Assembly (NCBI GenBank): GCA_043753995.1
Contig: JAYUVP010000084.1
Span: 1 to 27,925, forward strand
Length of the DNA stretch: 27,925 nucleotides
DNA from: Fibrobacterota bacterium
Lineage (GTDB): Bacteria; Fibrobacterota; Fibrobacteria; UBA11236
Direction of reading: 5' to 3'
The translations under genes and the position numbers were made by a program. Numbering within the stretch: the stretch's first letter is position 1; each line of letters starts with the position of its first letter. The notes beneath the pieces were generated by a model, which was not told the origin of the DNA, ran no database searches, and was given only the letters and a program-made list of their open reading frames with translations. Below are positions 6,931 to 25,400 of the stretch, piece by piece.

Positions 6931-6985
6931 CCTCATGTCGCGTAGTTTGAGCACCCCAAACACCCCCAGCAGCCAGGATGGCCCG

Positions 6986-9900
6986 ATGACTTCGGTGCAA
7001 ACCCTGAACGATCTCTTGGGCGGACATCTCTTTCCGTCCTTGGCCGCGCCGCGGCCCATGCGCGGGGAGCCGCTCCATGTAGCCGGGCTCGAAGGCAGTG
7101 CGACTTCGGCCTTCGTGGCGTCCCAATTTCTACGCGAGCAGGGCAAGGGCAAAACCGGGCAAATCCTTTTTCTCGCCGCCGACGCCAAAAGCGCCGAGAC
7201 CATGGCCGAAGACTTGGAAGGTTGGCTCGGCGACGAGGCTGTCATTCAATTTCCAGGTCTCGATCTCAAGCCCTATGAATGGCGCCATCCTTTCGGGCAT
7301 TTGCTGGAACAGAGACTCAACGGCTTCGAGGCGCTCTATCGCAAGCGCAATGCCGTCGTCGTCATCACGCTTTCCGATTTTCTCCTCAAACTCAATAGCC
7401 CTGAAAGCCTGCATCTCGAAATCCTGGCCTTTCAAAAGGGCGAAACCCTTTCATTGCGGAACTTCCGCGAAACGCTTTTGCAAATGGGCTTTCGTGAGGA
7501 AAATACGGTGCAAGACATCGGTGAATTTTCGGTGCGCGGCGAAATCATCGACGTCTACCCTTATCTCGCCCAGCATCCCTTCCGCATCGTGCTTTTCGGC
7601 GACAGCATTGAAGCCATCAAGGAATTCGACATTTTCACCCAGCGCTCCTTGCGCGAAGTGGAAGCCATCGAAATTTTCCCTCTCGACGAATGCAGCTTCA
7701 CGCCAAAAGAAATCGAAGCTGGCATGGAGCGCCATTTCGATCGGTTTTTAGGGGAGGGCGGTTTTGAAGCTGAAAATCACAAGCTTTTAATCAAGCGCGA
7801 CTTTGCTGGCATTCATTGGCAAAAGGCCTTCTTCAAAGAGCTGCGCTATACCCTGCTCGACTTTCTCGGCCCCGATCCCCTGGTGGTTTTGGGCGATGCG
7901 GAAGCCATGGCGAATACGGTCGATAAGGTTTGGTCCAATGCCCTCGAAGGCCATGCCGAGGCCGTGCATAAAGACCGCTGGATTTGCCGCCCCAACGAAC
8001 TCTGGTTGGACGGGCCCGGGCTGGAACGCCTGCTTGGAAGCGTGCGCCACGTTCGCCTCTCCCGCGTGAGCTGGGAAGGCCGCTTGTCGCGCACCCTGAA
8101 TGTGGAAGCGCAGACTCGCGCCGGCGCGGGCCTCAAAGACATCGACGATCGCATACGCAAGCTTGCCCAGGAAGGCGTGCAGCTTTACCTCACCGCCCCC
8201 AATGAAGGCCAGGCCGATCGCCTCCGAAAATTGGCCGTCGATTTGCCCGTGGCGGGCGTGGTGGTGGGCCATCTCGATTGCGGCTTCACTTTGCATGATG
8301 ATGCCGTAGCGATCTGGACCGATCATCAAATCTTTAATCGCTTTTCTAGAAAGGTCAGGCAGCGCCGCCAAAAAGGCGGGGGCGTTTCCATACAGAATTT
8401 CGAGGCCCTCACGCGCGGTGACGTGGTGGTGCATGAAGACTATGGCGTGGGCCGTTTCGTCGGTATCAAGCGCATTGTCGCTCAGGGCCATGCCGTCGAT
8501 TGCATTTTGCTCGATTTCTCTGGTACCGACAAATTGGCCTTGCCCGTCACCGACCTGGGCAAGCTGGAAAAATTTTCCAGCGAAGAGGGGCATATTCCCC
8601 AGCTCAGCAAACTGGGTGGCAAGAGTTGGGAAATCACCAAGGAAAAAACCCGCAAAGCCGTGCTCAAGCTGGCGCAAGAGCTCATCGAGCTCTATGCCCA
8701 ACGCAGCGTGGTGCCTGGTTATCCCTTCGCGGCCGATGGCCCCCTGCAGGCCGAATTCGATCAGTCCTTCGAATGGGAATTGACTCCCGATCAAGCTAAG
8801 GCTGTTCAAGATTCCAAGAACGACATGGAGGCCCCGCGCCCCATGGATCGCCTCATTTGCGGCGACGTGGGCTTTGGTAAAACCGAAGTCGCCATGCGCG
8901 CCGCTTTCAAAGCCGTGGCCGACAAAAAACAAGTGGCCGTGCTAGCTCCCACCACCATTTTAGCGGCCCAACATTTCGACCGCTTCGTCGATCGCTTCTC
9001 TTCCTTCCCGGTGCGCATTGAATCTTTGACGCGCTTTCGCACCGCCAAGGAGCAGAAAGAGGCCCTGAAAACCGCCGCCGAAGGCGGGGTGGACATACTC
9101 ATTGGCACCCATCGCCTGCTGTCTAAGGACGTGGTGTTCAAGGATGTCGGACTGCTGATCATTGACGAAGAACAAAAATTCGGGGTGAAGCAAAAGGAAC
9201 GCCTCAAGGAATTGCGCACCCAGGTCGACGTGCTCAGCATGTCAGCCACGCCCATACCGCGCACCTTGCATATGGCCCTCATCGGCACGCGCGACTTGAG
9301 CATTATCGCGACGCCCCCGCGCAATCGCCTGCCCATCGAAACCCGTGTCTTGCCTTGGGACGGTCGGCAAATACGGGATGCTATCAATCACGAATTGTCG
9401 CGCGGTGGCCAGGTCTATTTCGTGCACAATCGCGTACAGACCATGCCCGAGACCTTGGAAAAGCTGCAAGCTTTGGTGCCTCAGGCCCGTATCGGCATGG
9501 CCCACGGGCAAATGGAAGAGGGCGAACTGGAGCGCGTCATGAGCGCCTTTATCGCTCGCGAATACGACATTCTCTGCTGCACGGCCATTATCGAATCCGG
9601 CCTCGACATCACTAACGTGAATACCATGATAGTCGACCGGGCTGAGCTTTTCGGCATGAGCCAGCTCTATCAATTGCGCGGCCGCGTGGGCCGATCCAGC
9701 GCCAAGGCCTATTGTCTGCTCATTTCGCCCGACGCCAACCGCTTCAACGACGACATGAAGAAGCGCCTCTATTCCCTGGAGAAATTCACCGAACTTGGCA
9801 GCGGCTTTCAAATCGCCATGCGCGATCTCGAAGTGCGGGGCGCGGGAAATATTCTCGGTCATGATCAAAGCGGCCATATCGCCACCGTAGGCTATGAAAC

Positions 9901-10414
9901 CTATGTGCGGCTACTCCAGGATGCCGTCAAGGAATTGCAGGGCCAGAAAAAGCTGCCTCCTCTGCAAGTCGAAATCGATTTCCCCCTCGACGCCTATTTA
10001 CCCGAGGAATATGTGGCCGACGGCCTTACGCGCACCGCCGTCTATCAAAAGCTGACCCGCCTGGAAGCCCTGCCCGAAATCGATGACCTCGACAAGGAAA
10101 TGAAGGACCGCTTCGGCCCTCTACCTGAACCCGCCCATGCCCTGCTGCAAACCATGCGGGCCCGTTTGGTGGCGCAAAAACGCGGTTTTGCCACCGTCGA
10201 ATTGCAAGGACCCAAGCTTTTGCTCACCTTTGCCGAAGCCTATCAGCCCGACCAAGCTGGCCTGGCCGAAATGGTTCCTCTTTTCAAGCGCACCATGCGC
10301 TTTATCGCCACCAAACCCCTTCAGATCGCCGTCGAACTCAATCCTCCCAAGGGCGACCATCGCCAGGCCATCGATCAGGCCATTCAGGTGCTGCGTGGAT
10401 TGTGGGTCGCCTGA
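6986..10414 (+). CDS. mfd: Transcription-repair coupling factor Mfd
   Basis: UvrB-homology region (GEFSVRGEIIDVYP), CarD-like RID (VVHEDYGVGRF), GDVGFGKTEVA, IIDEEQKFGV, QLRGRVGRS, DLEVRGAGN, TRCF C-terminus. ORF is open from 6935; ATG 6986 is preferred because AGGA lies at 6975-6978. Confidence 0.98.
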   Translation: MTSVQTLNDLLGGHLFPSLAAPRPMRGEPLHVAGLEGSATSAFVASQFLREQGKGKTGQILFLAADAKSAETMAEDLEGWLGDEAVIQFPGLDLKPYEWRHPFGHLLEQRLNGFEALYRKRNAVVVITLSDFLLKLNSPESLHLEILAFQKGETLSLRNFRETLLQMGFREENTVQDIGEFSVRGEIIDVYPYLAQHPFRIVLFGDSIEAIKEFDIFTQRSLREVEAIEIFPLDECSFTPKEIEAGMERHFDRFLGEGGFEAENHKLLIKRDFAGIHWQKAFFKELRYTLLDFLGPDPLVVLGDAEAMANTVDKVWSNALEGHAEAVHKDRWICRPNELWLDGPGLERLLGSVRHVRLSRVSWEGRLSRTLNVEAQTRAGAGLKDIDDRIRKLAQEGVQLYLTAPNEGQADRLRKLAVDLPVAGVVVGHLDCGFTLHDDAVAIWTDHQIFNRFSRKVRQRRQKGGGVSIQNFEALTRGDVVVHEDYGVGRFVGIKRIVAQGHAVDCILLDFSGTDKLALPVTDLGKLEKFSSEEGHIPQLSKLGGKSWEITKEKTRKAVLKLAQELIELYAQRSVVPGYPFAADGPLQAEFDQSFEWELTPDQAKAVQDSKNDMEAPRPMDRLICGDVGFGKTEVAMRAAFKAVADKKQVAVLAPTTILAAQHFDRFVDRFSSFPVRIESLTRFRTAKEQKEALKTAAEGGVDILIGTHRLLSKDVVFKDVGLLIIDEEQKFGVKQKERLKELRTQVDVLSMSATPIPRTLHMALIGTRDLSIIATPPRNRLPIETRVLPWDGRQIRDAINHELSRGGQVYFVHNRVQTMPETLEKLQALVPQARIGMAHGQMEEGELERVMSAFIAREYDILCCTAIIESGLDITNVNTMIVDRAELFGMSQLYQLRGRVGRSSAKAYCLLISPDANRFNDDMKKRLYSLEKFTELGSGFQIAMRDLEVRGAGNILGHDQSGHIATVGYETYVRLLQDAVKELQGQKKLPPLQVEIDFPLDAYLPEEYVADGLTRTAVYQKLTRLEALPEIDDLDKEMKDRFGPLPEPAHALLQTMRARLVAQKRGFATVELQGPKLLLTFAEAYQPDQAGLAEMVPLFKRTMRFIATKPLQIAVELNPPKGDHRQAIDQAIQVLRGLWVA

Positions 10415-10521
10415 GGGATTTGTATCCTATGCCCCCAATGTCCAGGGACTTTCTCCGAGCCGCCGTAAAGCGGTACCTATGTCTTTTTTCCGCGATTTTG
10501 ACGCCCGGTGCATTTCTGCGC

Positions 10522-11649
10522 TTGAATAGCACCCATTCACGCCTTCTGCTTGGACTTTTGGTTTTGGCCTTAGGACTGGGGCTTTCCAACTGCACCTCCA
10601 AGAAAAAGCCAGGTACGCCCCTGGCCAAGGTGGGCACGGCCACCCTGACTCTCGAAGATGTGCGATTAACCTTTCCGCAAGAATTTGAGCAAGCCCTCCC
10701 CCGCGAGCAATACCTCGATTTCGTGAAACGCTGGATTGACGATGAAGTCATTTACCAACAGGCCCAAAAGGCCGAATTGGATAAAGACACCTCTATCGCC
10801 AGACGCATCGAGGAAATGCGACGCAAATTGCTGATTGAAGAATTCATGGCGCGCGAAGGCGCGGCCGAGGCCGTTGAACCTGATGAAGGAGCTTTATCTC
10901 AATATTATGAGGTTCATCGCGAAGAATTTCGCCGTAAAGTTGCCGAATGGCGTTTTCTCACCTTACGAGTGAAAAGCTTTAAAGAGGCCCTCGAATTGAA
11001 GCCAAAGCTGCGCGGAAGCGATTACTTGGTCCAGGCGGCTCCGCATTTACTTGACCCCTTGCCCGAAGACCTGGAATCCTTGCCATTTCGAAAAGCCCAA
11101 GACATTCGCGCCTGCCTGCAACCTACCCTGGGGCAGACTCCGGTCGGGCAAATCGCCGGGCCCTTGACCTGCCCGGAAGGGATCATCCTGGTTAAGGTGC
11201 TGGAAAAAGCCGAAGCTGGGACCTTGATTGCCTTCCCGACCGTGCGGGACCATATCGCGGGCATTTTGATGATGGAACGTAAGAGCAAGCAAAGGGAAGG
11301 CGCGGTTGCCCGCTACAAGGAAGGCGCCTTAATCACTTTCAATCTGGATAAAATTCCTGGTCGCGAAACTCCAGCAGAAGAAAATGAAGCCGTGTCCATG
11401 CCTTCCCAAGAAAGCGATGAACTCCAAGCACAGGAAAAAGCGGTGCGCAATTCAGTAGACCTGGCTGGAACGACACCAGGCGATATGCCTAAACCAAAAC
11501 CCAAGCCCCGCCCTGCCCCGCCTCGACCTGTCGCCCCGCCGCCACCTTTGGAACCTTTCGATAATACCCCAGCCAATGAGCCTACCGGGGCTTTGCGGTC
11601 GGATGCACCTTCGGCCCCGGTGACGGACACTTCGCATGCAATGCCCTGA
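10522..11649 (+). CDS. PrsA/PpiC-type peptidyl-prolyl isomerase-like lipoprotein with an acidic/Pro-rich tail
   Basis: Lipoprotein signal ...LGLGLSN-C, LAKVG..LTLEDV, WIDDEVIYQQAQ and YYEVHREEF. Start uncertain (TTG 10522 chosen; ATG 10429/10438 possible). Confidence 0.75.
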   Translation: MNSTHSRLLLGLLVLALGLGLSNCTSKKKPGTPLAKVGTATLTLEDVRLTFPQEFEQALPREQYLDFVKRWIDDEVIYQQAQKAELDKDTSIARRIEEMRRKLLIEEFMAREGAAEAVEPDEGALSQYYEVHREEFRRKVAEWRFLTLRVKSFKEALELKPKLRGSDYLVQAAPHLLDPLPEDLESLPFRKAQDIRACLQPTLGQTPVGQIAGPLTCPEGIILVKVLEKAEAGTLIAFPTVRDHIAGILMMERKSKQREGAVARYKEGALITFNLDKIPGRETPAEENEAVSMPSQESDELQAQEKAVRNSVDLAGTTPGDMPKPKPKPRPAPPRPVAPPPPLEPFDNTPANEPTGALRSDAPSAPVTDTSHAMP

Positions 11650-13111
11650 AACTCCATTACGCCCTGCCATTCTCCGCTTGGCCTTGACCTCCTTGGCCAT
11701 TATGACCCTGGCTATAAGCCTGGCCTCGGCGGCTACCGAGGCCGCCAAGTCAGGGAATAAACGCGAGCCGGTCGACGGAATCGTGGCCCAGGTCGACGAC
11801 CAAATCATTTTGCTTTCCGAGATTGAGGAAATGCGGCAAGTGCTGGCCATGCAAAACCCAGCCTTTCGCCGTACTCCCGCCGCCTTGCAAAGGCGTGAAA
11901 TGCTGGAACGCATCATTGAGGAGAAGGTGGTTTTGGCCAAGGCCAAGCAGGACACCACCATTCGCGTTTCCGAAAAAGATTTGACTCCGCGAGTGGAGGA
12001 AACCTATCAGCAATATGTGAAGCAAAGCGGTGGGGAAAAAGCTTTGGAAACGGCCTTGAAGCAAACCACCGGCATGAACCCAGTGCAATTCAAGGCGCGA
12101 CTCTTGGACCAAATGCGCGATCAAGCCTATCGCCAACGCTTGCAAATGAAATATGTCGGCGATCACGATCCATCCAATTCTCAAGTGCAAGAATTCTACA
12201 CGCGCTACAAAGACAGCCTGCCTACTCAACGCGATGGCATTAAACTGGCGCATATTCAATTGCGCATTCAGGCTGGCCGGGTTCTTGACAGCGCGGCTTT
12301 CGCAAAGGCCAATGAAGTCATTGCCCGCCTCGACAAGGGCGAACGTTTCGATTCTCTGGCCAAGCAAACCAGCGAAGATCCTTCAGGCAAGGACGGGGGC
12401 GATATCGGCTATACGCGGCGCGGCACTCTCGACCCGGATTATGAAAGGGCAGCATTCAGCCTGGATGCCGGCGACTATACTCTCCGACCGGTGCGCAGCC
12501 GCTTTGGTTGGCACGTCATCAAGGTGACGGGAAAAAAAGACAATGAAGCCCGCACCAGCCACATTTTCATTCGCGTAACACCTTCGGCCGAAGACACGGC
12601 CCAGGGCAAGGTGCGCGCGGATTCTTTGCGCACAGTTTTATTGGCCGACACGAATAAGGCACGGGCAGCGAAAACTTTCGCCGACATCGCTCGTAAGCTT
12701 TCCGACGATCGCAAAACCAAGGCTTTAGGCGGCTCGCTAGGCTGGTTTCAAAAGGACCAAATCGACGATACCTATAAGTCGGCCGTGGATACCCTAAAGC
12801 AAGGCGATATTTCCGCTCCGATTTTGATTGGAGACAGCTGGAATTTATTCCTTCTCGAAAATAGGGCCGAGGAGCGCCATCTCACCCTCGATGAAGACTG
12901 GACCCAAATCGCCCAAGTCGCCAAAAATTGGCAAGCGAATCAAAAGCTGAATTCCTTCGTGCAAAAATGGCGGGAAAGCATTTTAGTGGAAGACCGTCTA
13001 GCGACCTTTACCGGCTTGCCTGAAAACAGTGGCCCGTCCGGAATTGAAAATACCGGCACCGAATCAGGCGAATTGCCGGTTTACGGGCCTGCCTCCCCCG
13101 GCGCAGAATAG
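11636..13111 (+). CDS. surA: SurA-like periplasmic chaperone/PPIase with two parvulin domains
   Basis: VDGIVAQVDDQIILLSEI N-domain, FDSLAKQTSEDPSGKDGGDIG, SRFGWHVIKV, FADIARKLSDD...GGSLGW. Confidence 0.88.
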   Translation: MQCPETPLRPAILRLALTSLAIMTLAISLASAATEAAKSGNKREPVDGIVAQVDDQIILLSEIEEMRQVLAMQNPAFRRTPAALQRREMLERIIEEKVVLAKAKQDTTIRVSEKDLTPRVEETYQQYVKQSGGEKALETALKQTTGMNPVQFKARLLDQMRDQAYRQRLQMKYVGDHDPSNSQVQEFYTRYKDSLPTQRDGIKLAHIQLRIQAGRVLDSAAFAKANEVIARLDKGERFDSLAKQTSEDPSGKDGGDIGYTRRGTLDPDYERAAFSLDAGDYTLRPVRSRFGWHVIKVTGKKDNEARTSHIFIRVTPSAEDTAQGKVRADSLRTVLLADTNKARAAKTFADIARKLSDDRKTKALGGSLGWFQKDQIDDTYKSAVDTLKQGDISAPILIGDSWNLFLLENRAEERHLTLDEDWTQIAQVAKNWQANQKLNSFVQKWRESILVEDRLATFTGLPENSGPSGIENTGTESGELPVYGPASPGAE

Positions 13112-13130: not shown

Positions 13131-13901
13131 ATGCGTGACAGCAGCCCCTATCGCATTCTCCCCGCGTTTTACGACGCGGTCATGGCCCATGTCGATTACT
13201 ACGCATGGGGAGCCTATTTGCGTCGCCTCTGGGAACGGGAGAAACTCGAACCTCAGCGCATTCTCGAACTTGCCGCCGGGACTTGTCCCTTTCACCGCAC
13301 CGGCGCTTATCCCAAAACCGCCGAAGTGGTTTATAGTGACTTGTCGCCAGGCATGCTCCATGCAGCCACCACGGCGAGCGCTGCCCGTCTCGGGGAAAAC
13401 CCAGCTCCCGCCTGGCGAATTGCCTGCAATGCCCTTAGCCTGCCCTTCGGCACTAATGGATTCGACGTCGTCATCATGGTTTATGACGCCTTCAATTATT
13501 TGATGGACCGCAAAGGCGTCCTGACCTGCCTCGCCGAAGTGCATCGCGTCTTGCGCCCGGGTGGCCTTTTCATTTTCGATGTGACCACGCAAACCAATTC
13601 CCGCCGTCACTTCACTGATTTTCTGGACATCGAGGAATTGCCGGAGGCGACCTTGATTCGGCGCACGCATTATGACAGCGATAGTCGGCTCCAGGAAAAT
13701 GCTTTCACCATTTTCGTGCGCGAGGCCGATGGCAACTATCGCCGCGAGGAAGAAAAGCATCAACAGCGGGTTTTTGAATTGAATCCCCTGCAGGCTTGGG
13801 CTGAGTCGGCGGGCTTTACCTTGAAAGGCCGCTATGCGGGTTTCAGCCTCAAGCCCGGCTCTGAAGCTTCCGAGCGCGTGCATTTCGTACTTTCGCGCTG
13901 A
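13131..13901 (+). CDS. Class I SAM-dependent methyltransferase
   Basis: YDAVMAHVDY, ILELAAGT, DLSPGML, FNYL, LRPGGLFIFD. ATG 13131, just after the surA stop, is preferred over 13029. Confidence 0.88.
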   Translation: MRDSSPYRILPAFYDAVMAHVDYYAWGAYLRRLWEREKLEPQRILELAAGTCPFHRTGAYPKTAEVVYSDLSPGMLHAATTASAARLGENPAPAWRIACNALSLPFGTNGFDVVIMVYDAFNYLMDRKGVLTCLAEVHRVLRPGGLFIFDVTTQTNSRRHFTDFLDIEELPEATLIRRTHYDSDSRLQENAFTIFVREADGNYRREEEKHQQRVFELNPLQAWAESAGFTLKGRYAGFSLKPGSEASERVHFVLSR

Positions 13902-13918
13902 TGACCGAGTGACGGAAA

Positions 13919-14599
13919 ATGATTTGGTTCAAGCATGTCAGCCGCATTTACGAGTCCGAGTTCCGGGCTTTGGACGACGTGCATTTCAGTATCGATCGCG
14001 GTGAATTCGTCTTTTTGACCGGCCCCTCGGGCGCGGGTAAAACCACCTTGATGCGCCTCATTTACATGGACGAGCAGCCCGATCGCGGTGAAGTGCTCAT
14101 CTCCTTCAACAAGGATTTGACGTATCGCAGTCATGAAACGCCGCATTCGCGCATACAATTGTTGCGTAGGCGGCTTGGCATTGTCTTTCAGGATTTCAAG
14201 CTGCTGCACGATCGCAATGTTTTCGAAAACGTGGCCTTCGCCTTGCGCATTGCGGGTTATTCCAATCAGCGCATGAAGGAAAGGGTTTTCGAAGTGCTGG
14301 CCATGGCGGGCATTTCCCACAAATCCAAATCCATGCCTTATCAGCTTTCCGGTGGAGAGCAACAACGCGTCGCCATTGCCCGCGCCGTGGCCAATGAGCC
14401 CTATATCGTCCTGGCCGATGAGCCCACGGGCAATCTCGATCCGGGAACTTCGCGGGAAATTCTCAAGATATTCCAGGAAATTCACGCCAAGGGCACGGCC
14501 GTGCTCATGGCCACCCATGACTATCAACTGATGGAAAACCTTCCCTATCGTCGCATGATGCTGCAACGTGGCAGCCTGGTGAATCGCGATTTCTTATAG
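13919..14599 (+). CDS. ftsE: Cell-division ATP-binding protein FtsE
   Basis: GEFVFLTGPSGAGKTT, GIVFQDFKLL, LSGGEQQRVAIARA, LADEPTGNLDP, GTAVLMATHD. Confidence 0.85.
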   Translation: MIWFKHVSRIYESEFRALDDVHFSIDRGEFVFLTGPSGAGKTTLMRLIYMDEQPDRGEVLISFNKDLTYRSHETPHSRIQLLRRRLGIVFQDFKLLHDRNVFENVAFALRIAGYSNQRMKERVFEVLAMAGISHKSKSMPYQLSGGEQQRVAIARAVANEPYIVLADEPTGNLDPGTSREILKIFQEIHAKGTAVLMATHDYQLMENLPYRRMMLQRGSLVNRDFL

Positions 14600-14632
14600 C
14601 GCTTTCGAGGGGGCGTTGGCGAACCCCTTTTG

Positions 14633-14638
14633 TACAAT
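14633..14638 (+). promoter_or_regulatory. -10 element of a leaderless aroA promoter
   Basis: TACAAT, 6 nt (TTCCCC), in-frame GTG at 14645. No SD. Confidence 0.5.
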
Positions 14639-14644
14639 TTCCCC

Positions 14645-16003
14645 GTGACCAGCGATACCTTGACCTTGCCTCCCTGCGCCTTTGCCGACGGCACCATTCG
14701 CCCTCCCGGTTCGAAAAGCCTAGCCAATCGCGCCTTGCCCTTGGCCGCCATGGCCCGCGGCAAGACCGTGCTCACCCATGTACCTGATGGTGAAGACGTC
14801 ACCCTGATGCGCGAGGCCTTGCACAAGCTCGGCGTACAAATGACTTCGCTCTCCCCCACATCGGAAAGCCTCACCGGACCCAGCGGCCCCTGGAGCCCCC
14901 AAGCCCTGGCCAACTCGGCTTCGGTTGAGCTCTTTCTAGGCAATTCGGGCACCTCCATGCGCATTCTTGCCGGGCTGCTGAGCGGCGCGCAGGGTCGCTT
15001 TCACTTGGATGGCATTCCACGTATGCGTGAGCGTCCCATTCGCGATCTCGTCGACGCGCTTTTGCCTCTTTGCGGTGAAACCCGCATCGAATATGCGGGA
15101 CAAGTAGGGTTTCCGCCTTTGCGCCTCAGCGCCGAAGGCTTGCGCGGCGGCAAAACTGCGATACAAGGCAATGTCAGCAGCCAATTCCTCACCGGCCTTT
15201 TGCTTAGCCTCCCGCTTTGTCGAGAAGAAGTCACGGTGGAAGTACAAGGCAAACTGGTGTCGGCCCCCTATGTCGCCATGACCCTGGCGGCCATGAGCGA
15301 TTTCGGCGTCACGGTGGAGAATGATTCCTTTCGCCGCTTTCACCTAAAGCCGGGACAGCACTACCAAAGCCCCGGCACCTATGCCATCGAACCCGATGCC
15401 TCTTCAGCTTCGTATTTCCTGGCCGCTGGCGCCATTGCTGGGGGTAGCGTACAGGTGACGGGTCTCGACGCCTCCAGTCAGCAAGGCGAAACCCAATTCG
15501 CGGCCGTGCTCGAACGTATGGGCGCCCGCGTGACCTGGGGACAGGGCTCGGTGACTGTACGGCCTCCCGAAAACGGTCTATTGCGCGGGCTCGACATCGA
15601 CATGGACTTGATGTCGGATACCGGCATGACCTTGGCCGTCACGGCGCTTTTCGCCCGAGGCCGCACGCGCATCACCGGCATCGGCAATTGGCGCGTGAAG
15701 GAAACCGATCGCATCGAGGCCATGGCAACTGAATTGCGCAAGGTCGGTGCCACCGTGGCTTCGGGTCCGGACTGGCTCGAAGTGACTCCCCCCTCGGCCC
15801 TCAACACCGCAACCATAGACACCTATCGCGATCATCGCATGGCCATGTGCTTTTCCCTGATTTGCCTCGGTGGCGTGCCCATTACCTTGCGTGATCCAGG
15901 TTGCGTCGCCAAAACTTATCCTGGCTACTTCGAAGCTCTGCGCGCTTTATTGCGCGTCGGGGCCAACGCCGGCGCCCCTCTTCCCGAATTTGCCCGCACA
16001 TGA
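14645..16003 (+). CDS. aroA: 3-phosphoshikimate 1-carboxyvinyltransferase (EPSP synthase, class I-like)
   Basis: PGSKSLANRAL, LGNSGTSMR, RMRERPI, VSSQF, EPDASSASYF, WRVKETDRI, DHRMAM. Confidence 0.97.
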   Translation: MTSDTLTLPPCAFADGTIRPPGSKSLANRALPLAAMARGKTVLTHVPDGEDVTLMREALHKLGVQMTSLSPTSESLTGPSGPWSPQALANSASVELFLGNSGTSMRILAGLLSGAQGRFHLDGIPRMRERPIRDLVDALLPLCGETRIEYAGQVGFPPLRLSAEGLRGGKTAIQGNVSSQFLTGLLLSLPLCREEVTVEVQGKLVSAPYVAMTLAAMSDFGVTVENDSFRRFHLKPGQHYQSPGTYAIEPDASSASYFLAAGAIAGGSVQVTGLDASSQQGETQFAAVLERMGARVTWGQGSVTVRPPENGLLRGLDIDMDLMSDTGMTLAVTALFARGRTRITGIGNWRVKETDRIEAMATELRKVGATVASGPDWLEVTPPSALNTATIDTYRDHRMAMCFSLICLGGVPITLRDPGCVAKTYPGYFEALRALLRVGANAGAPLPEFART

Positions 16004-18330
16004 CCTCTAAATTTTCCGCCTGCGCTGGCCTTGTTTTGGCCCTTGCCGGCCTCACCCGCTGCGAACCCGCTCCCACCCCGCGTCCCGATAGTGGCAAGCC
16101 ACCCGCATCCACCGCGCCTTCGCCCGCACCCAATGCCGTCACCGGCCCCCGGTATACAGCCGATGACGAACGTTTGCCTCGCATTCCCACCGTACCGGGA
16201 CCGCCTTCCGTCGCCTGGAAAACCCTAGCCTCGCATCGCCTTGACTCCATGGTCCAGGCCGAATGGGCGCGCTCTAAATTACGTGGCCGTTTGGGCGTCA
16301 GCGTTTATTCGACTCGCTATGGCCGCGCCGAAGCTGGCGTCCATGACAGTGAATGGTTCACCCCAGCCTCCAATTTGAAATTGGTGGTGACCGCAGCCAC
16401 CATAGACACCTTTCCCGTGAATCATTTCCCCTTGACTGCCCTGGAAGTCCGAGGCCGCATCGAAGGCCGTACTTTATATGGCACTTTGGTGGCCGTGGGC
16501 GGCGGCGATCCCAATGTCAGCAATCGCTTCTTTCCTGACGCCTTAAGCCCGCTCAAACCCTTTGCCGACAGCTTGCGACGCCTGGGCATAGACAGCGTGA
16601 TAGGCGAAGTCGTCACCATCGATACTTTCTTTCATGGTCCGCGTCGCCCCAAGGCCTGGCGTGAGCATCATTTCAATACCTGGTATGGCGCCGAAGTTTC
16701 TTCGCTATCCTATCAGGACAATGCCTTTGACTTGACCGTCATGCCTTCGGCCAAGGTGGGTGCGCCACCGGTAGCCTTGATCGATCCCGACGTCGGCTAT
16801 GTGCAGGTGGTGAATAAGGCGCGCACGGTCAAAGGAAAAGCCCGCCGCCTCTTCGTGAGGCAGGATTCCGATACCACGCGCGTCACTCTCACGGGCACCT
16901 TGGGGCAAAAATCCGGGGGCGTGCACATGGTATTACCCGTGCGCGATCCTCCCGCCTATTTTCGCGCCGCCTTAATGCGGGCTCTCGCCCAGAACAGTAT
17001 TGCCGTGGCACCCGCTCCTCTCGCGGCCAAGGCCGACAGCTTGCCTGTGCTACACCGTTTCCACCTCACGACGGCTCCGCTTTATGACATGATCGAAGAG
17101 GTGAATCAAAAAAGCCAGAACTTGCAGGCCGAAGCCTTATTGCGCCATCTCGGCGGATGGGTTTATCAGGATGCCAGCGATACCTCTGGAATTCGCGCTG
17201 AATATCACTTCTTGAATAAGATGGGCGTAGATACCTCGGATTTTATCTTACGTGACGGTTGCGGACTTTCTTCCGAAAACCGCATCAAGCCTAAGGCCGT
17301 TGCCTCCATGCTGGCCGCTATGGTGCGGCATCCTTATGTGAACGACTATATCGCCTCCTTGGCCACCCCAGGACTGGACGGCGCTACCGGAAGGCGGCTT
17401 CGCCCCTGGTATCAAAGCAATATGATCCGCTACAAGACCGGCTCCATCAATCGTGTGCAAGCCTTGTCGGGCTATGCCTTCGGCATTGACAATGACACCT
17501 TGGCGGTCGCGCTCTTCATCAATGATTTCATGGGCTCCCCGGAAAAGGCCGCCCGCCTTCTCGACACCCTTTTCGTGCGCGTCGCCACGACCATGAATGC
17601 GGAGCGCGAGGGCGTCATTGCCGCCCATAAACTCTTATCGAGGCCCGATGCTCCACCGAATTATCGCGATCGCTTGCGTTTTTTCTCTGCCGCCTTAGAA
17701 GGCCGGCCTTATTTTCTCGGCCCCACCGGCGAGGGCCGCTACGAATCCCCGGACGGTAAGCCCCTGCTCGACATGTCCCGCTTCGATTGCGTCACCTATG
17801 TCGAAAGCGTCCTGGGCATGGCCCTGGCGCGTAATGCCCGCGAGGTATTGCCCATGGTGAAACGCCTTCGTTACCGTGGTGACACTCTTGCCTACCACAC
17901 CCGCAATCATTATTTCGTGGCCGATTGGCTGGCTAACAATGAGAAATACGTGCGCATTCTCCCCTTGCCGGGCGACACCGTGGGCGCGCGCTTCATCAAC
18001 AAGGTGAAATTCTTCCAGGGTAAGAAGCAACCCGCCCCGGCCAGCGATCCCATTCTGCACATGCGTTATCTCACCTATGAAAAGGCCATGGCACTATCCA
18101 AAAACTGGAGCCCAGGTCCCGGCTTTTTCGGCGTCGCCTTCGTCACCGACATCGAAGGCCTTGACGTCACCCACTGCGGATTCCTGCTCGCCGACGGCAA
18201 GGGACCGGTGCAATTGCGCCATGCCAGCCAATTGTTAGGAAAGGTGGCCACCATGGATTTCACGAATTACCTCGAAACGCGCAAAGGAAAATGCTCGGGC
18301 ATCGTGGTATTTGAATTCCTAGACCCCTGA
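16000..18330 (+). CDS. dacB: Fusion protein: D-Ala-D-Ala carboxy/endopeptidase (PBP4, peptidase S13) plus C-terminal DUF1460/AmiA-like NlpC/P60 amidase; probable lipoprotein
   Basis: ATGA overlap with the aroA stop. SxxK (PASNLK), GGGDP, SxN (KSQN), DGCGLS and KTG motifs. C-terminal ~220 aa has GRPY, FDCVTYVE, RNHYF, GLDVTHCG and LRHAS. Confidence 0.9.
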   Translation: MTSKFSACAGLVLALAGLTRCEPAPTPRPDSGKPPASTAPSPAPNAVTGPRYTADDERLPRIPTVPGPPSVAWKTLASHRLDSMVQAEWARSKLRGRLGVSVYSTRYGRAEAGVHDSEWFTPASNLKLVVTAATIDTFPVNHFPLTALEVRGRIEGRTLYGTLVAVGGGDPNVSNRFFPDALSPLKPFADSLRRLGIDSVIGEVVTIDTFFHGPRRPKAWREHHFNTWYGAEVSSLSYQDNAFDLTVMPSAKVGAPPVALIDPDVGYVQVVNKARTVKGKARRLFVRQDSDTTRVTLTGTLGQKSGGVHMVLPVRDPPAYFRAALMRALAQNSIAVAPAPLAAKADSLPVLHRFHLTTAPLYDMIEEVNQKSQNLQAEALLRHLGGWVYQDASDTSGIRAEYHFLNKMGVDTSDFILRDGCGLSSENRIKPKAVASMLAAMVRHPYVNDYIASLATPGLDGATGRRLRPWYQSNMIRYKTGSINRVQALSGYAFGIDNDTLAVALFINDFMGSPEKAARLLDTLFVRVATTMNAEREGVIAAHKLLSRPDAPPNYRDRLRFFSAALEGRPYFLGPTGEGRYESPDGKPLLDMSRFDCVTYVESVLGMALARNAREVLPMVKRLRYRGDTLAYHTRNHYFVADWLANNEKYVRILPLPGDTVGARFINKVKFFQGKKQPAPASDPILHMRYLTYEKAMALSKNWSPGPGFFGVAFVTDIEGLDVTHCGFLLADGKGPVQLRHASQLLGKVATMDFTNYLETRKGKCSGIVVFEFLDP

Positions 18331-18347
18331 ATTCCTTTCCGATACCC

Positions 18348-18356
18348 TGCTATATT
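18348..18356 (+). promoter_or_regulatory. Extended -10 promoter of the fur-like gene (leaderless geometry)
   Basis: TGcTATATT, 6 nt (CCGAAC), GTG start at 18363. No SD. Confidence 0.6.
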
Positions 18357-18362
18357 CCGAAC

Positions 18363-18806
18363 GTGGAAAACAAAAAGACACTTCCCAATGCCCAAGCCAT
18401 TTATGCCGAATGGCTGAAGCGCAAGGGCATGTTCTTCACCAAAGAACGCGTCCTCTTGCTCGACTTCATCATGGCGCAGCCCGGTCATTTCAGCGCCGAT
18501 GAATTGCTTTTCGAGCTGCAGAAAATCCAAGCCAAGATTTCACGTGCCACGGTCTATCGCAGCTTGAGCCAAATGGTCGAGGCCGGCATTTTAACCGAAA
18601 GCGATTTCGGACATGGCCACACCCACTACGAAATCTCCCTGGGCACCCGCCCGCATGTGCACTTCATCTTCACTGATACCGGCGAAGTGAAGGAAATTCA
18701 CAGCCAAAAAATCGAAGATGCCTTGAGCGAATTGGCTCGTAAAGAAGGCTTCACCATCAAGCGCTTCAAAATTCAAGTCTTCGGCGAAAGCCGCAAAGTC
18801 CGCTGA
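18363..18806 (+). CDS. Fur-family transcriptional regulator (no cysteines)
   Basis: FTKER, HFSADEL, ISRATVYRSL wHTH, HYE and PHVHFI..TGEVKE. Confidence 0.92.
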   Translation: MENKKTLPNAQAIYAEWLKRKGMFFTKERVLLLDFIMAQPGHFSADELLFELQKIQAKISRATVYRSLSQMVEAGILTESDFGHGHTHYEISLGTRPHVHFIFTDTGEVKEIHSQKIEDALSELARKEGFTIKRFKIQVFGESRKVR

Positions 18807-18863
18807 CAAGTTCAAAGTGAAACGTCTCGCCCAGCCCCGCTGGCTAGTGGATTCATTCCCCCA

Positions 18864-19646
18864 ATGACTCTTGATTTGCTGTCCGCCTGCGGGCTTGCCG
18901 TGGCCGGAATGGCGGCGGGAGGGCTCAATGCGCTCGCCGGAGGTGGCGGCTTCATCGTCCTACCTGCCCTGATGTTGGCGGGGTCGACAGCGGTTCATGC
19001 CAATACCACGGGTTCGGTGGCCGTATTGCCTGGCGCCTTCGTCACCGTGCTGGCCTATCGAAAGGGCCTGGGAGCCGACGCCAAGTCCCTGCCTCTTTAT
19101 ATCACCCTCGGTATACTCGGCAGCATTTTGGGATCGGCGCTTTTGCTTTTCACCACCAATGAGGCTTTTCTTCAGCTTTTACCCTGGTTGCTCCTGGGCG
19201 CGACCTTGCTTTTTCTTTTCGGCCAACGTCTCACCGAGGTCGCTCGCCGTTCGGGCAAGCTCGGAAGCGATGGGCATCGCCGTCGTTGGCAAGTGCCGGT
19301 CTTACTCTCAGTCATCGCCATTTACGGCGGATATTTCGGCGGCGGCATGGGCATCATGACCCTGGCCGCCTTGGCCTTGCTTGGCATCGAAGATATCCAT
19401 GAAATCAATGCCCTCAAGAGCATTTTGGTTTTCATCATTTGCACCGTGAGCGTGCTTTTTTTCATTGCTCAAGGAGCCGTCGATTGGGTACCGGCCTTGC
19501 CTATGATGGCGGGCAATTTAGTCGGTGGTTATGCCGCCAGCCGCTGGGCCGTCGGACTGCCCAAGGTTTTGCTGCGACGCGTGATCAGCGGCCTCTGTGT
19601 CACGATCACCCTAGCCTATATGCTGCGCGCCTGGGTATTGCGGTAA
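18864..19646 (+). CDS. Sulfite exporter TauE/SafE (TSUP) family membrane protein
   Basis: AGGLNALAGGGGFIVLPAL, ANTT, YGGYFGGGMGI, INALK; about 8 TM segments. Confidence 0.9.
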   Translation: MTLDLLSACGLAVAGMAAGGLNALAGGGGFIVLPALMLAGSTAVHANTTGSVAVLPGAFVTVLAYRKGLGADAKSLPLYITLGILGSILGSALLLFTTNEAFLQLLPWLLLGATLLFLFGQRLTEVARRSGKLGSDGHRRRWQVPVLLSVIAIYGGYFGGGMGIMTLAALALLGIEDIHEINALKSILVFIICTVSVLFFIAQGAVDWVPALPMMAGNLVGGYAASRWAVGLPKVLLRRVISGLCVTITLAYMLRAWVLR

Positions 19647-21697: not shown

Positions 21698-22462
21698 ATG
21701 GCCCGTGACAAAAAGCGTGATTCCCCCCGGACGGTAACACGTCCGGGCAAAGGCCGCGGCACCGGCAAATCCAAGCGGAATTTTTTTCTTAGACTGCTTC
21801 ATGGGGTTCGCCAGGCAGTGCTGATTTTCGTGGCTGTCACCTTCGCCATCACCTTATTGTTTCGCTTCGTAAAGCCTCCTGGGACGCCCCTAATGATCAT
21901 TCGAATGGGCGAACAATGGCTGAATCACGAACCCATCCAGGCACGCAAAGAATGGCAACCGCTTGAGCAAATGGCGCCAGCTCTGGCGCAAGCGGTCATC
22001 GCTTCCGAGGATCAGAATTTTTTCGACCATCACGGATTTGACATTCGCGCCTTAATGTCGGCAGTAGAAGGCAATATTTCAGGTCGCCGAATGGCCGGAG
22101 CCAGCACCATCTCCCAGCAAACCGCGAAAAATCTATTCCTTTGGCCCGATCGAAGCTGGGCGAGAAAAGCCCTGGAAGTCTATTTCACCGGGCTGATTGA
22201 ATTGCTCTGGAGCAAGCGGCGCATTCTAGAGGTTTATCTCAATATTGCCGAAACCGGCCAAGGAATTTACGGCTTTCCCCTGGCATCCCAGGTTTATTAT
22301 CGCAGCTCGGTAGGAAAATTGACCTCGGAGGAGGCGGCTTTGTTGGCGGCCTGTTTGCCCAATCCCCGGTCTTGGACACCTCAGCATGCGCCGCGCCATG
22401 TCTTGCGGCGTCAAGCTTGGATTTTGCGGCAAATGTCGATGCGCGGGAACTTGCCGCTTTAA
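21698..22462 (+). CDS. mtgA: Monofunctional biosynthetic peptidoglycan transglycosylase
   Basis: GT51 motifs ASEDQNFFDHHGFD, GASTISQQTAKNLFLW, RKALE, KRRILEVYLN, LPNP. One N-terminal TM. Confidence 0.95.
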   Translation: MARDKKRDSPRTVTRPGKGRGTGKSKRNFFLRLLHGVRQAVLIFVAVTFAITLLFRFVKPPGTPLMIIRMGEQWLNHEPIQARKEWQPLEQMAPALAQAVIASEDQNFFDHHGFDIRALMSAVEGNISGRRMAGASTISQQTAKNLFLWPDRSWARKALEVYFTGLIELLWSKRRILEVYLNIAETGQGIYGFPLASQVYYRSSVGKLTSEEAALLAACLPNPRSWTPQHAPRHVLRRQAWILRQMSMRGNLPL

Positions 22463-22471
22463 AAAGCCATC

Positions 22472-25400
22472 ATGAGCGCTACTCTTTATTTCAGCAATAG
22501 TGCGGCCATTTTACTCGATCAACTCGCCGCTCATATCGGACAGGGCGATCCCTTTACGGCGCCTCGCCTCGCCACCCCCACCGCAGCCTTGCGGCGACTC
22601 GTGCAAATGGGTCTGGCCGAAAGACTGGGTGCCGTGGCCAATCTAGGCTTTTTGCATTTGGAGCGCGCCTTGTGGGATTGCCTTGCGAATCTCGACGCCT
22701 ATCGCTTGGCGCCCGATCGCGAACCGGCGCGCCTATTTAGCCCTGGAGATTTGCAGGCGCTTTTGCTGGCCAAGCTTCTGGAGCGACCTCCCGAAGCTGC
22801 CGCGCAGTATCTAGGCTGGGGAATGAAAGCCGATGGGCTTGAAGCTGGGGGCATCGGCAGTATCCCCCGTGACGTGGACATTTCCCCTTCCGCGTGGCGC
22901 AAGGCTTTGCAATTGTCGGGACGCCTCGCCTATTTATTCCGCGAATACGAATACAGCCGTGTGCGTGAGCATGGCCGTGAAGGATTGGCGGCCCTGTGGC
23001 TGCGCGGTTCGCCTTGCTTCGCCGACTATCTCGATGCCGGTTCGCCTTCGGCGACCAAGCAGCGAGTGGCTGCCTTGGAAAGCTGGCAAAGCGATTTATA
23101 CCGCGATGTCTTCGGCCCGAATGGATTGCGCGACATCCTGGGTGCGGTAACGGGCCGCTACCTCTATACCTTGCCGCAATACCGCGAAATGGTTTTCGCC
23201 CAGCCGCGAACCACGCCGGTCGTGGCGAACCCCACCTTGGAGCACGCCGATGGGGACAGGTCCCGGAAGGATATCGCCCTTGACCTTTTCGGCTTGGCAC
23301 AAATCTCCCCATTTCACCGCAGCCTCATTCAACAATTATCCGATACCGAAATCACGGGAGGAAATCCGACTCGATTTCGAATTTATGCCCTCAACCCCTG
23401 CGCGGAATATTGGGAAGACGCCCTCGACCCCCGAACACGACGTCGCCGCATGCAGCAAGATCTTTTGCGGCAAGAGCGTTTCTTGTCCTGGCGTCACCTC
23501 GATATCGCCGAAAAGAAGCGGCTGCAATTGCGGCGCGATGCCTTATGGGCCGAAAGCCTCGCCGCCGATCCGCAGGATAATGCCCTCCTCGCCCGCTGGG
23601 GCCTGGTGGGCAGAGAAAATGTCCAACTCTGGTGCCAGGTCACCGACTATGCCTTCGCGGGTCGTTTTCGCGAACCCACGGGAAACACTTTGTTAGCGAC
23701 CGTGCAGTCGGCAGTTTTACATCGCTCCGGGCCCTTACCCATGGAAGAACGCGTCGCCCAGGACCTAAGCCTTCGCCTGATGGCGGCGCCCGAAATCCAT
23801 CGTGAAATCGAAACGGTTTTGCATGACATGATTGAGCGATGCGCCGCGGACCCGACCTTGCGGCCGGACGATATGGCCATCCTGCTCACCAATGGCGAGG
23901 CTTATGGACCGGTCATCGACACCGTATTTGGCGCCCGCGGTTTTGGCGACGCCGGGTTTCTTCCCTTTGTCCGGCCCGAAGCGGGTTTGCATGCCTCGGA
24001 TGCCTATTTGCGGGGCCTTCACACCTTGGCGGCCATGGCCCAGGGCGAATTCGACCGTCCGCATTTTCTCGAATTAATCGCCAATCCCCGCTGTCAAACC
24101 CGCCTCGGCTTCGACGCTGCCGCAGCCGAAACCATGGCCCAATGGGTGACAGCCATGAACCTTTTCCAGGGCCAGGGCGATAACTTAAGTGATGCCAAGA
24201 CGCGAACCGATCCTCATCGCTTCCTCACTGGCATGCGACGACTTTTGCTCGGCTTTTGGCTGGAACCCCCAGGTGACGGGGAAGGGACGTCTTTCCAAGG
24301 TTACTCTCCCTATGCCCCACCCATGGGCGATCGCGAAACCTTGGCCTCTTTTTGCGGCTTGGTCAAAGCTCTCGAATATGGGCTGGCGCCCTTTTTCGCC
24401 ATAGCCAAATCGGAATCCCCCATGACGCCGCGGGGCATGCCGCAATGGGCCGATGCCTTTTTCAATCTCGCCGAGGCCTGCCTGTCTCCGGCGGACGAGG
24501 CGGGCGAAGCCGCCTTCGTTCACCAAATTCAACAATGGCGGCAAGGCCTTGAGTTTTTCGACCGAGCCCGCCAGGCCTTGCGCGGCGAGGCCGAGACGAT
24601 TTCAAGTGCTTCGAATGGCCCGGCTTCAGTGGATCAGCCCAAGGGGCTTTTTCTGGAAAGCCTGCGCGAGGCCCTGGCCTCGGCGAATGCACCGGGTCGC
24701 CCCTGGCTGACGGGTGGGGTGCAAGTGGGAAGCCTGGAAGCCTTGCGCGGCCTGCCTTTTCGCGTGCTTTATGTTCCCGGATTGCAAGAAGGGGACTTCC
24801 CAGACGAGCCCCTGCAAAGCAGTCTCGATTTACGTCAATTCCGGCGCGTCATCGGCGATCTTGAGCCAGCGGCGCGTAACCGCTATTCCCTGCTCATGGC
24901 CTTGATGCAGGCCAAGGATGCCGTGGTGCTAAGCTATGTCGATCGCGACTTGGAGCGGGATCGCGATCAGCAGCGAAGTTCGGCCTTAGGCGAACTCGTC
25001 GACTATCTCGAATCCGACATCTTACCACGGAAGGATGAGAAACGGGCAGGTTTCCGTCTCGTCCGCGTTTCCCTGGATCCGGGTGCGCCGCCCCAGGTTT
25101 CCGCTGACGGCGAGGAGGCCTTATCTCCCCCGCGTCATCCGTTTCCCGAAGGCGATCTTATTTCGCATGAGAACCTCCTCGGTGCCACTCGCGTCTCAGG
25201 ACAGACACAGGAGGCGAAAAATGACCTGGATTCGCGGCAATCCTTGCCGACGGCTTTAGACGTTGACGACCTTGTGAGGTTTTTACGGCATCCGCGCAGA
25301 CAAGTTTTGAAATGGCGACTCAAACTTTCCGATCGCTATGCGGAAGCCGTTGAAGAAACCGAGCCCTTCGCCTTGCCCGAACGCCTGCGAAGAGACTTGC

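Follow-up and report, generated by a model that had tools for sequence, protein, structure and literature searches.

We analysed a stretch of 27,925 nucleotides (the window; contig JAYUVP010000084.1, positions 1 to 27,925 of the forward strand) from the genome of a Fibrobacterota bacterium of the class Fibrobacteria (GenBank assembly GCA_043753995.1), a draft that is 97% complete and consists of 356 contigs. Positions 16000 to 18330 of the plus strand hold a single open reading frame (ORF) of 776 codons plus stop, with no interruption in either the ORF listing or the translation, and Pfam and NCBIfam profiles resolve its product (P0001) into an apparently exported fusion of penicillin-binding protein 4 (PBP4) and an AmiA-like amidase. 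A first-pass annotation, made from the sequence and its reading frames, had described this ORF as an in-frame fusion of PBP4 to a DUF1460/AmiA-like domain with both catalytic sets intact, and the description is upheld by Pfam, NCBIfam, matches to solved structures in PDB, Foldseek comparisons, and motif conservation. The gene begins with the ATG at 16000 and ends with the stop codon at 18328 to 18330. Its ATG overlaps, as ATGA, the stop codon of the upstream aroA gene (5-enolpyruvylshikimate-3-phosphate [EPSP] synthase, 14630 to 16003, plus strand, recognized from the ORF listing, its Pfam annotation, and the compared loci). A longer version of the frame opens at a TTG at 15901, but we take 16000 as the start because a signal-like N-terminus follows directly after the ATG and because of the ATGA overlap.

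Reading along the plus strand, the protein comprises a signal-peptide-like N-terminus (residues 1 to 21, positions 16000 to 16062), a low-complexity stretch rich in Pro and Ala (residues ~22 to 70, positions 16063 to 16209), a Peptidase_S13 domain (residues 94 to 513, positions 16279 to 17538), a connector (residues 514 to 561, positions 17539 to 17682), and an AmiA-like domain (residues 562 to 763, positions 17683 to 18288). Two details of the earlier description need adjusting: the second catalytic domain is present, but its Pfam boundary lies at 17683 rather than at about 17660, and the Pro-rich stretch that had been called a linker exists, but near the N-terminus, after the signal peptide and ahead of the S13 domain, and not between the two catalytic domains.

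The identity of the N-terminal catalytic domain rests on several comparisons. It matches PF02113 (Peptidase_S13) with an E value of 3.6e-63 and 214.3 bits (cut-off, 22.8), and it scores 188 bits against the PBP4 equivalog model TIGR00666 (cut-off, 107.8), whereas its 111.6 bits against NF008322, the equivalog model for enterobacterial DacB, fall far short of that model's cut-off of 527; by these profiles, this part of the protein is a member of the PBP4 family and not an orthologue of DacB in the narrow sense. A sequence search of PDB returned Bacillus subtilis PBP4a (1w5d; E value of 1.1e-30) and Escherichia coli PBP4 (2ex2). Foldseek aligned the modelled domain to PBP4a (TMt of 0.82), to the Actinomadura R39 DD-peptidase (1w79; TMt of 0.81), and to E. 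coli PBP4 (TMt of 0.78) over 449 to 474 columns, so that the complete three-subdomain PBP4 fold, that is, the penicillin-binding domain with its two inserted domains, is recovered. All three active-site motifs are in place: SxxK as S124-N-L-K127, with Ser124 as the nucleophile (16369 to 16380), SxN as S372-Q-N374 (17113 to 17121), and KTG as K479-T-G481 (17434 to 17442). Sequence and model together describe an entire low-molecular-weight penicillin-binding protein of class C.

The C-terminal domain matches PF07313 (AmiA-like, formerly DUF1460) over profile positions 2 to 201 of 202, with an E value of 9.1e-24 and 84.5 bits (cut-off, 27; in the whole-genome profile search the domain scores 87.2 bits), which assigns it to the NlpC/P60-type cysteine amidases and removes the possibility that this part of the protein belongs to no DUF1460- or NlpC/P60-type family. 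Solved DUF1460 proteins were recovered from PDB by sequence (2im9, 2p1g, and 4h4j, with E values from 6e-15 for 2im9 to 1.6e-3), and Foldseek returned the Legionella protein 2im9 (TMt of 0.70; E value of 2.3e-12) and Bacteroides uniformis AmiA (4h4j; TMt of 0.71; E value of 1.2e-9). Cys597 in FDCVTYVE (17788 to 17790), His725 in GLDVTHCG (18172 to 18174), and His741 in LRHAS (18220 to 18222) align with the Cys and the two His residues of 2p1g and 4h4j, the last of them with the His of the HAS motif, and a review of papain-like enzymes gives a Cys-His-His triad for DUF1460 (4Q5K) (PMC10318531). When 43 diverse stand-alone AmiA-like proteins are aligned, D-C-x-T, R-x-H, W, N, and H-x-G prove invariant, and the fusion protein retains all of them (D596, C597, T599, R635, H637, W643, N647, H725, and G727). 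The codons first assigned to Ser124 (16369), Cys597 (17788), and His725 (18172) proved exact on translation, and each of the motifs SNLK, SQN, KTG, FDCVTYVE, GLDVTH, and LRHAS occurs in the protein.

An AlphaFold2 model of the whole protein, built on an alignment of 36 sequences, reproduces both folds at a mean predicted local distance difference test score (pLDDT) of 82.3 and a predicted template-modelling score (pTM) of 0.71. Residues 1 to 66 are modelled as disordered (pLDDT below 50) and the remainder as well ordered, including the 48 residues between the two Pfam domains, which are predicted to be helical (514 to 532, 536 to 546, and 555 to 565; block pLDDT of 82 to 95). When the two halves were folded as separate chains, the docking score was 0.52 (the median of runs at 0.00, 0.52, and 0.57), compared with 0.00 for the best of three controls; the runs agree in at least 77% of contacts, the pLDDT of the partners is at least 85, and no interface is reported. 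The docking pass mark is reached by 116 of 157 solved complexes and by 2 of 215 mismatched pairs, with passes at scores of 0.60 or below made up of just 18 of the 157 solved complexes and both passing mismatches, and since the docking was run on our own alignment, these benchmark counts hold only roughly. The docking thus lends weak support to a defined interface between the domains, and with moderate confidence we regard the modelled coupling as rigid rather than as beads on a string.

To place the architecture within the phylum, we searched 201 Fibrobacterota genomes with the fusion protein as the query. A match spanning both domains is present in 105 of the 112 other genomes of the class (a total that leaves out the source genome), distributed over its families as 21 of 21 genomes in f1, 3 of 4 in f2, 76 of 78 in f3, none of 4 in f4, 2 of 2 in f5, the single genome of f6, and 2 of 2 in f7. 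(One f1 genome, G194, is flagged as unpublished; it contributes one row to the counts, tree, and alignment, and none of our conclusions depends on that row by itself.) In the two remaining f3 genomes, matches end at residue 651 or 632, and in one of these, residues 620 to 776 sit on another contig; in the four f4 genomes, the AmiA-like proteins are stand-alone. Outside the class, 72 of 88 genomes contain some match and 16 contain none, and among the matches listed for these 88 genomes (82 further ones lie beyond the list) there is none that spans both domains.

The same architecture is common in protein collections, where both Pfam families occur in 54 of the 120 matches listed for the whole protein and in 111 of 115 matches to its C-terminal part, although the source annotations of the fused matches read just "dacB" or "PBP4 family D-alanyl-D-alanine carboxypeptidase." Wherever the source name of a fused match includes a taxon, it is Fibrobacteres, Fibrobacterota, Fibrobacteria, or Fibromonadaceae. 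The gene is carried by 31 named genome records, 25 of them titled as Fibrobacteres, Fibrobacteria, or Fibrobacterota metagenome-assembled genomes (MAGs); the other six, four titled "uncultured Bifidobacterium/Bifidobacteriales" and two just "bacterium" or "uncultured bacterium," appear to be mislabels or generic labels. The four MAGs with Bifidobacterium or Bifidobacteriales titles (L045, L055, L059, and L062) have a Fibrobacteria-type fusion gene at 41 to 53% identity, and their taxon labels are probably wrong. The reach of these searches is defined by their design: the exhaustive search with the C-terminal domain covers the best 150 of 1999 matches, so that it would miss fusions that arose separately and involve more distant amidase domains, and a word-based search limited to longer proteins, using a profile of the 43 stand-alone AmiA-like proteins, returned just 2 proteins and is uninformative about fusions outside Fibrobacterota.

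Both active sites have been maintained across this distribution. From 195 candidates of at least 600 amino acids we obtained 140 distinct sequences, the query included, that contain both domains. Ser124 and Lys127 are kept in 138 (the other two are gapped fragments), Ser372 and Asn374 in 139, Lys479 in all 140, and Cys597 and His725 in 139 each, and the catalytic residues of both domains are kept together in 137, across divergence down to 35 to 40% identity. The exceptions are P0125, an N-terminally truncated fragment, and P0126 and P0231, to which we return below. The junction is conserved as well: the KTG Lys and the amidase Cys are separated by 118 residues in 92 of the 140 sequences and by 115 to 123 residues in 133, giving the connector a near-constant length, and the alignment blocks at the junction are as conserved (0.49 to 0.59) as the domain cores.

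A quick, unrooted FastTree phylogeny of 164 AmiA-like domains (39 from the PBP4 fusion and 125 from other proteins, taken from the top exhaustive-search matches and the compared loci) places all 39 fused domains in one clade of 50 rows with a support of 98. Of the other 11 rows, 7 are stand-alone proteins from f4 and its relatives and 4 are short (182 to 260 amino acids) and probably fragments, and the sister clade consists of AmiA-like proteins from other Fibrobacterota families. Since no fused amidase domain lies outside this clade, the fusion probably took place once, early in the class Fibrobacteria, and comparison of the sequences indicates that the fusion, with both of its active sites, has been kept across the class.

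That DUF1460 domains are usually separate proteins, as the first-pass annotation had it, is true of most relatives, which are 200 to 350 amino acids long, but fusions also occur. A survey of 27 proteins, most longer than 400 amino acids, from the best 150 of the 1999 C-terminal-domain matches and from the compared loci uncovered partners other than S13: Peptidase_S9 or alpha/beta hydrolase, SLT_2, 3D domain, polysaccharide deacetylase, GDPD, BNR/YCF48-like repeats, HEAT repeats, MucBP, and a second AmiA-like copy. Two examples come from other Fibrobacterota families. In P0277 (L031:2837-4546 [+], genome G010), the partner of the AmiA-like domain is an SLT_2 (MltB-type) lytic transglycosylase domain, an enzyme type that generates the presumed substrate of the amidase, and in a 951-amino-acid protein (L026:786-3638 [-]), the partner is Peptidase_S9, as in the architecture of Bacteroides thetaiotaomicron BT1087. 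In light of the fusions to SLT_2, S9 hydrolase, and other modules, together with the BT1087-like architecture, the AmiA-like domain is a recurrent building block placed beside enzymes that make or trim peptidoglycan fragments.

BT1087 is among the closest published analogues of the fusion protein. It carries its AmiA domain at the C-terminus, behind an N-terminal alpha/beta hydrolase that is proposed to take D-Ala off the stem peptide, and the protein as a whole is proposed to process N-acetylglucosamine-anhydro-N-acetylmuramic acid (GlcNAc-anhMurNAc) peptides in the periplasm during peptidoglycan recycling (PMC4600125). The two proteins therefore share a C-terminal AmiA-like cysteine amidase behind a serine hydrolase, as well as their expected compartment. 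They differ in the hydrolase, which in the fusion protein is a PBP4/S13 DD-peptidase with SxxK, SxN, and KTG motifs, and in the expected chemistry, which for the fusion is DD-endo- and carboxypeptidase activity with cleavage of cross-links and for BT1087 the release of D-Ala from a free tetrapeptide. The pathway in which BT1087 is placed is itself a proposal. Compared with stand-alone relatives, the amidase part belongs to the same Pfam family as B. uniformis AmiA (4H4J, 4Q5K, and 4Q68), 2IM9, and 2P1G and shares their fold (TMt of 0.70 to 0.71) and Cys-His-His triad, but those structures are separate proteins of 236 to 333 residues with ~20 to 22% identity to it. Likewise, the S13 part resembles E. 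coli PBP4/DacB (2EX2), B. subtilis PBP4a (1W5D), and R39 (1W79) in its Pfam and TIGR00666 assignments, its three active-site motifs, and its fold (TMt of 0.78 to 0.82 over about 460 residues), but these enzymes end after the penicillin-binding domain, where the fusion protein continues for a further 260 residues, and enterobacterial DacB is set apart by the NF008322 score given above.

From these comparisons, we somewhat favor the view that the protein is an exported, periplasmic, bifunctional hydrolase that acts in peptidoglycan turnover through two catalytic sites. PBP4-type enzymes are DD-carboxy- and endopeptidases (PMC9166362), and the S13 domain would accordingly be expected to cleave D-Ala-meso-diaminopimelate cross-links and to trim terminal D-Ala residues, while the AmiA-like domain would act as an N-acetylmuramoyl-L-alanine amidase through the putative triad Cys597-His725-His741. 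Bacteroides AmiA is reported to act on peptidoglycan degradation products only and to be specific for anhydro-muropeptides (PMC4600125); if this specificity extends to the fusion, its amidase substrates would be the GlcNAc-1,6-anhydroMurNAc-peptides freed by lytic transglycosylases, and cross-linked turnover fragments processed by the two tethered sites would end up as free stem peptides and anhydro-disaccharide within the periplasm. Such a route would resemble the periplasmic turnover and recycling proposed for BT1087 rather than the cytoplasmic AmpG/AmpD/LdcA/AnmK pathway of E. coli. The fusions of AmiA-like domains to SLT_2, 3D, and S9 hydrolase modules fit a role beside enzymes that make or trim turnover fragments. 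A two-step remodelling or recycling enzyme had been suggested at the outset; two activities in turnover remain the most reasonable reading of the sequence, but the order proposed then, uncross-linking followed by removal of the peptide, was a guess, and either order may apply.

The gene inventory of the source genome, compiled by single-model profile searches, fits a Bacteroides-like periplasmic route and does not fit the cytoplasmic route of E. coli, although absences from a draft assembly are weak evidence. The searches recovered five SLT-domain genes, two Amidase_3 genes, and two S13 genes (the fusion and one stand-alone), and the AmiA-like domain of the fusion is the only one in the genome. 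Across the 356 contigs of this draft, AnmK, Peptidase_S66/LdcA, and AmpG (TIGR00901) were not found by these searches, nor were Peptidase_S11 (PBP5/6), SLT_2, and MltA. The stand-alone S13/PBP4 paralogue (G000:C288:4-1308 [+]) lies at the start of a short contig and has no AmiA-like domain after it; second matches confined to S13, at about 22 to 31% identity to the query, also occur in several f1 genomes (e.g., G112, G146, G152, G156, and G166).

Several observations weigh against assigning the protein to the turnover of soluble fragments by two coupled sites. The anhydro-muropeptide specificity is carried over from one characterized Bacteroides enzyme, to which the fusion is only ~21% identical. 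E. coli PBP4 is tied to septal amidases rather than to recycling (PMC9166362). The proposed third triad residue is not fixed, position 741 being His in 107 of the 140 fused sequences, Asn in 26, Asp in 2, Gln in 2, and Val, Met, or Tyr in 3. The absences of AmpG, AnmK, and LdcA rest on a draft in 356 contigs and on single-model searches, and a weak Amidase_2 match within a 927-amino-acid frame of the source genome leaves room for an AmpD-like activity. The neighboring aroA, fur, and TauE genes give no support for a pathway, and the docking pass is weak, one of its three runs having scored 0.00. Finally, the coupling of the two domains is not obligatory, as three natural variants demonstrate. 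In P0231, a full-length fused orthologue of 718 amino acids, the amidase Cys is replaced by Asp and the His by Gln. The fourth f2 genome (G042, a single contig of 1.6 Mb from the same order as the source genome) has, after aroA, a 472-amino-acid PBP4 that lacks the amidase domain (L028:2996-4411 [+]). P0126 keeps the amidase part, with the Cys and both His residues intact, but is missing the S13 core (about residues 125 to 470).

The strongest competitor is the proposal that the same bifunctional enzyme acts on the intact sacculus during growth or division and not on soluble turnover products, with the DD-endopeptidase opening cross-links and the amidase removing the peptides from the glycan strands, yielding denuded strands and aiding the separation of daughter cells. 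The fusion would then hard-wire a cooperation between PBP4 and amidases that is known from E. coli, where PBP4 localizes to midcell and binds EnvC, which activates amidases, and where its action is proposed to be coordinated with that of AmiA and AmiB (PMC9166362). The parallel pairs a PBP4-type DD-endopeptidase with N-acetylmuramoyl-L-alanine amidases in both cases, but in E. coli the septal partners are zinc amidases (Amidase_3), to which PBP4 is linked by protein-protein contacts, whereas the fusion links PBP4 covalently to a cysteine amidase of another fold. A role in the sacculus gains from the f3 family, in which 75 of 78 genomes have a single match to the query, the fused protein, which may thus be the sole S13 penicillin-binding protein there, and from the lack of an S11 PBP5/6 among the profile matches in the source genome. 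It loses from the reported specificity of the sole characterized AmiA-like enzyme for anhydro-muropeptides, from the two Amidase_3 (AmiC-type) genes that the genome has available for septal cleavage, and from the AmiA-like fusions elsewhere to lytic transglycosylase modules, which point to anhydro products. We consider action on the sacculus rather unlikely.

A separate question is whether the protein is soluble in the periplasm, as we propose, or anchored to the membrane. Its N-terminus consists of MTSK, a hydrophobic core, and L-T-R-Cys21, and export is likely on this basis; the first-pass annotation went further, reading the segment as a possible lipoprotein signal and the protein as membrane-tethered. 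A lipobox has the form [LVI][ASTVI][GAS]-Cys after a hydrophobic core. The fusion protein does possess the signal-like segment and the Cys, and what departs from this form is the Arg at position -1. Among the 4440 frames of the source genome that are at least 200 amino acids long, a crude scan picked out 403 candidates whose N-terminus has a basic residue and a hydrophobic core followed by a Cys. Position -1 is Gly (101), Ala (77), or Ser (41) in 219 of them and Arg in 3, from which the organism seems to use ordinary lipoboxes. In three proteins of the genome (on contigs C58 and C97 and at 16000 to 16065 of the window), the signal-like N-terminus closes with [S/T]-R-Cys (LALSR-C, LLTR-C, and GLTR-C), an unusual arrangement.

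Many close orthologues likewise have a Cys right behind the hydrophobic core, often as R-C-[DE], H-C-[DE], or Q-C-[DE] and once as the canonical L-A-G-C, and the long Pro/Ala stretch that follows, though variable in length and sequence, is of the disordered kind found after the Cys of tethered lipoproteins; both features speak for a Cys21 anchor. Against it stand the Arg at -1 and its rarity in the scan, the Ser, Gly, or Val that many other close orthologues have in place of the Cys, and a possible signal peptidase I site (A-L-A|G) just upstream. Membrane tethering is not borne out by this comparison, and we regard a lipoprotein as a doubtful alternative to a soluble periplasmic protein.

Very unlikely, in our judgement, is the idea that only one of the two domains is an enzyme, the AmiA-like part being a non-catalytic binding or targeting module for PBP4 or the PBP4 part serving as such a module for the amidase. 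The three variants described above speak for it. P0231 has only a partial Pfam AmiA-like match (positions 2 to 78 of 202) and a long branch in the tree, and its amidase domain has apparently been inactivated on an intact PBP4. G042 has lost the whole amidase domain, with no AmiA-like match among those listed for the genome from the fusion-protein query, and this looks like a secondary loss in a reduced genome. P0126 (846 amino acids, on a 317-kb contig), in which aroA runs in frame into a fusion gene without the S13 core, is either a natural deletion and read-through variant or an artefact of assembly or gene calling. The retention of both catalytic sets in 137 of 140 divergent sequences argues the opposite. 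We reject as negligible the possibility that an assembly error or a frameshift merged two separate genes into this ORF, since nothing was found in its favor beyond the draft state of the source, while the architecture recurs elsewhere in the class, in 105 of 112 genomes (some of them single contigs), and in 31 named records, and the junction is conserved in both sequence and length.

The fusion is thus a conserved, uncharacterized combination of two well-known families of peptidoglycan hydrolases, whose published analogue has another peptidase partner, and not a new kind of chemistry or system. We found no description of an S13 plus AmiA-like architecture in the literature searched, which did not extend to subscription journals or the InterPro architecture pages, and no literature linking Fibrobacter with penicillin-binding protein 4 or dacB; its novelty is limited by its presence in public databases, where it is annotated as dacB or PBP4 in more than 100 genomes. 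Low-molecular-weight penicillin-binding proteins and cell wall amidases are usually studied as separate, redundant enzymes whose partnerships are hard to pin down genetically, and a fusion that has persisted throughout a class, with both active sites and a fixed connector, suggests that both activities serve a single flow of substrate jointly and offers a single protein in which the coupling of PBP4 and amidase could be measured. If turnover of soluble fragments is indeed its role, the hypothetical periplasmic recycling scheme of Bacteroides would extend to a second phylum, and the poorly known AmiA-like family would gain a second experimentally tractable member.

A more ambitious proposal, which we put forward tentatively and hold to be somewhat improbable, is that in Fibrobacteria the only AmiA-like amidase, rigidly joined to PBP4 (apparently the sole one in the largest family), converts cross-linked anhydro-muropeptide dimers directly to free peptides and anhydro-disaccharide and so forms the core of a periplasmic recycling pathway that dispenses with AmpG, AmpD, LdcA, and AnmK; the fusion might then serve as Rosetta-stone evidence for a general rule, by which endopeptidases of the PBP4 type and muramoyl-L-alanine amidases act one after the other as obligate partners.

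The surroundings of the gene are conserved without being informative about its function. aroA lies directly upstream in 5 of 7 annotated loci of the class, as well as in the window itself, and in one further locus, a solute-binding-protein gene intervenes between the two. The aroA and fusion genes are probably cotranscribed, but we rejected the neighborhood as functional evidence, since the conserved adjacency to aroA has no evident link to the cell wall. A scan of positions 13800 to 19000 detected no promoter-like site and 3 terminator-like sites, compared with 5.9 expected by chance; one of the latter (17665 to 17678), within the ORF near the junction, was treated as a chance occurrence. Elsewhere in the window, a monofunctional peptidoglycan glycosyltransferase gene (Pfam Transgly, 254 amino acids; 21698 to 22462, plus strand) lies 3.4 kb downstream of the fusion gene, from which it is separated by fur, a TauE-family gene, and rpsD; it sits directly upstream of a recC-like gene (22472 to 26335) and has no evident link to the fusion. 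On the upstream side, an ORF of 415 amino acids (10402 to 11649, plus strand) with no Pfam family at an E value of 1e-5 or below is located between mfd (6935 to 10414) and a gene for a SurA-like peptidyl-prolyl isomerase (11636 to 13111), overlapping both by a few bases in an operon-like arrangement.

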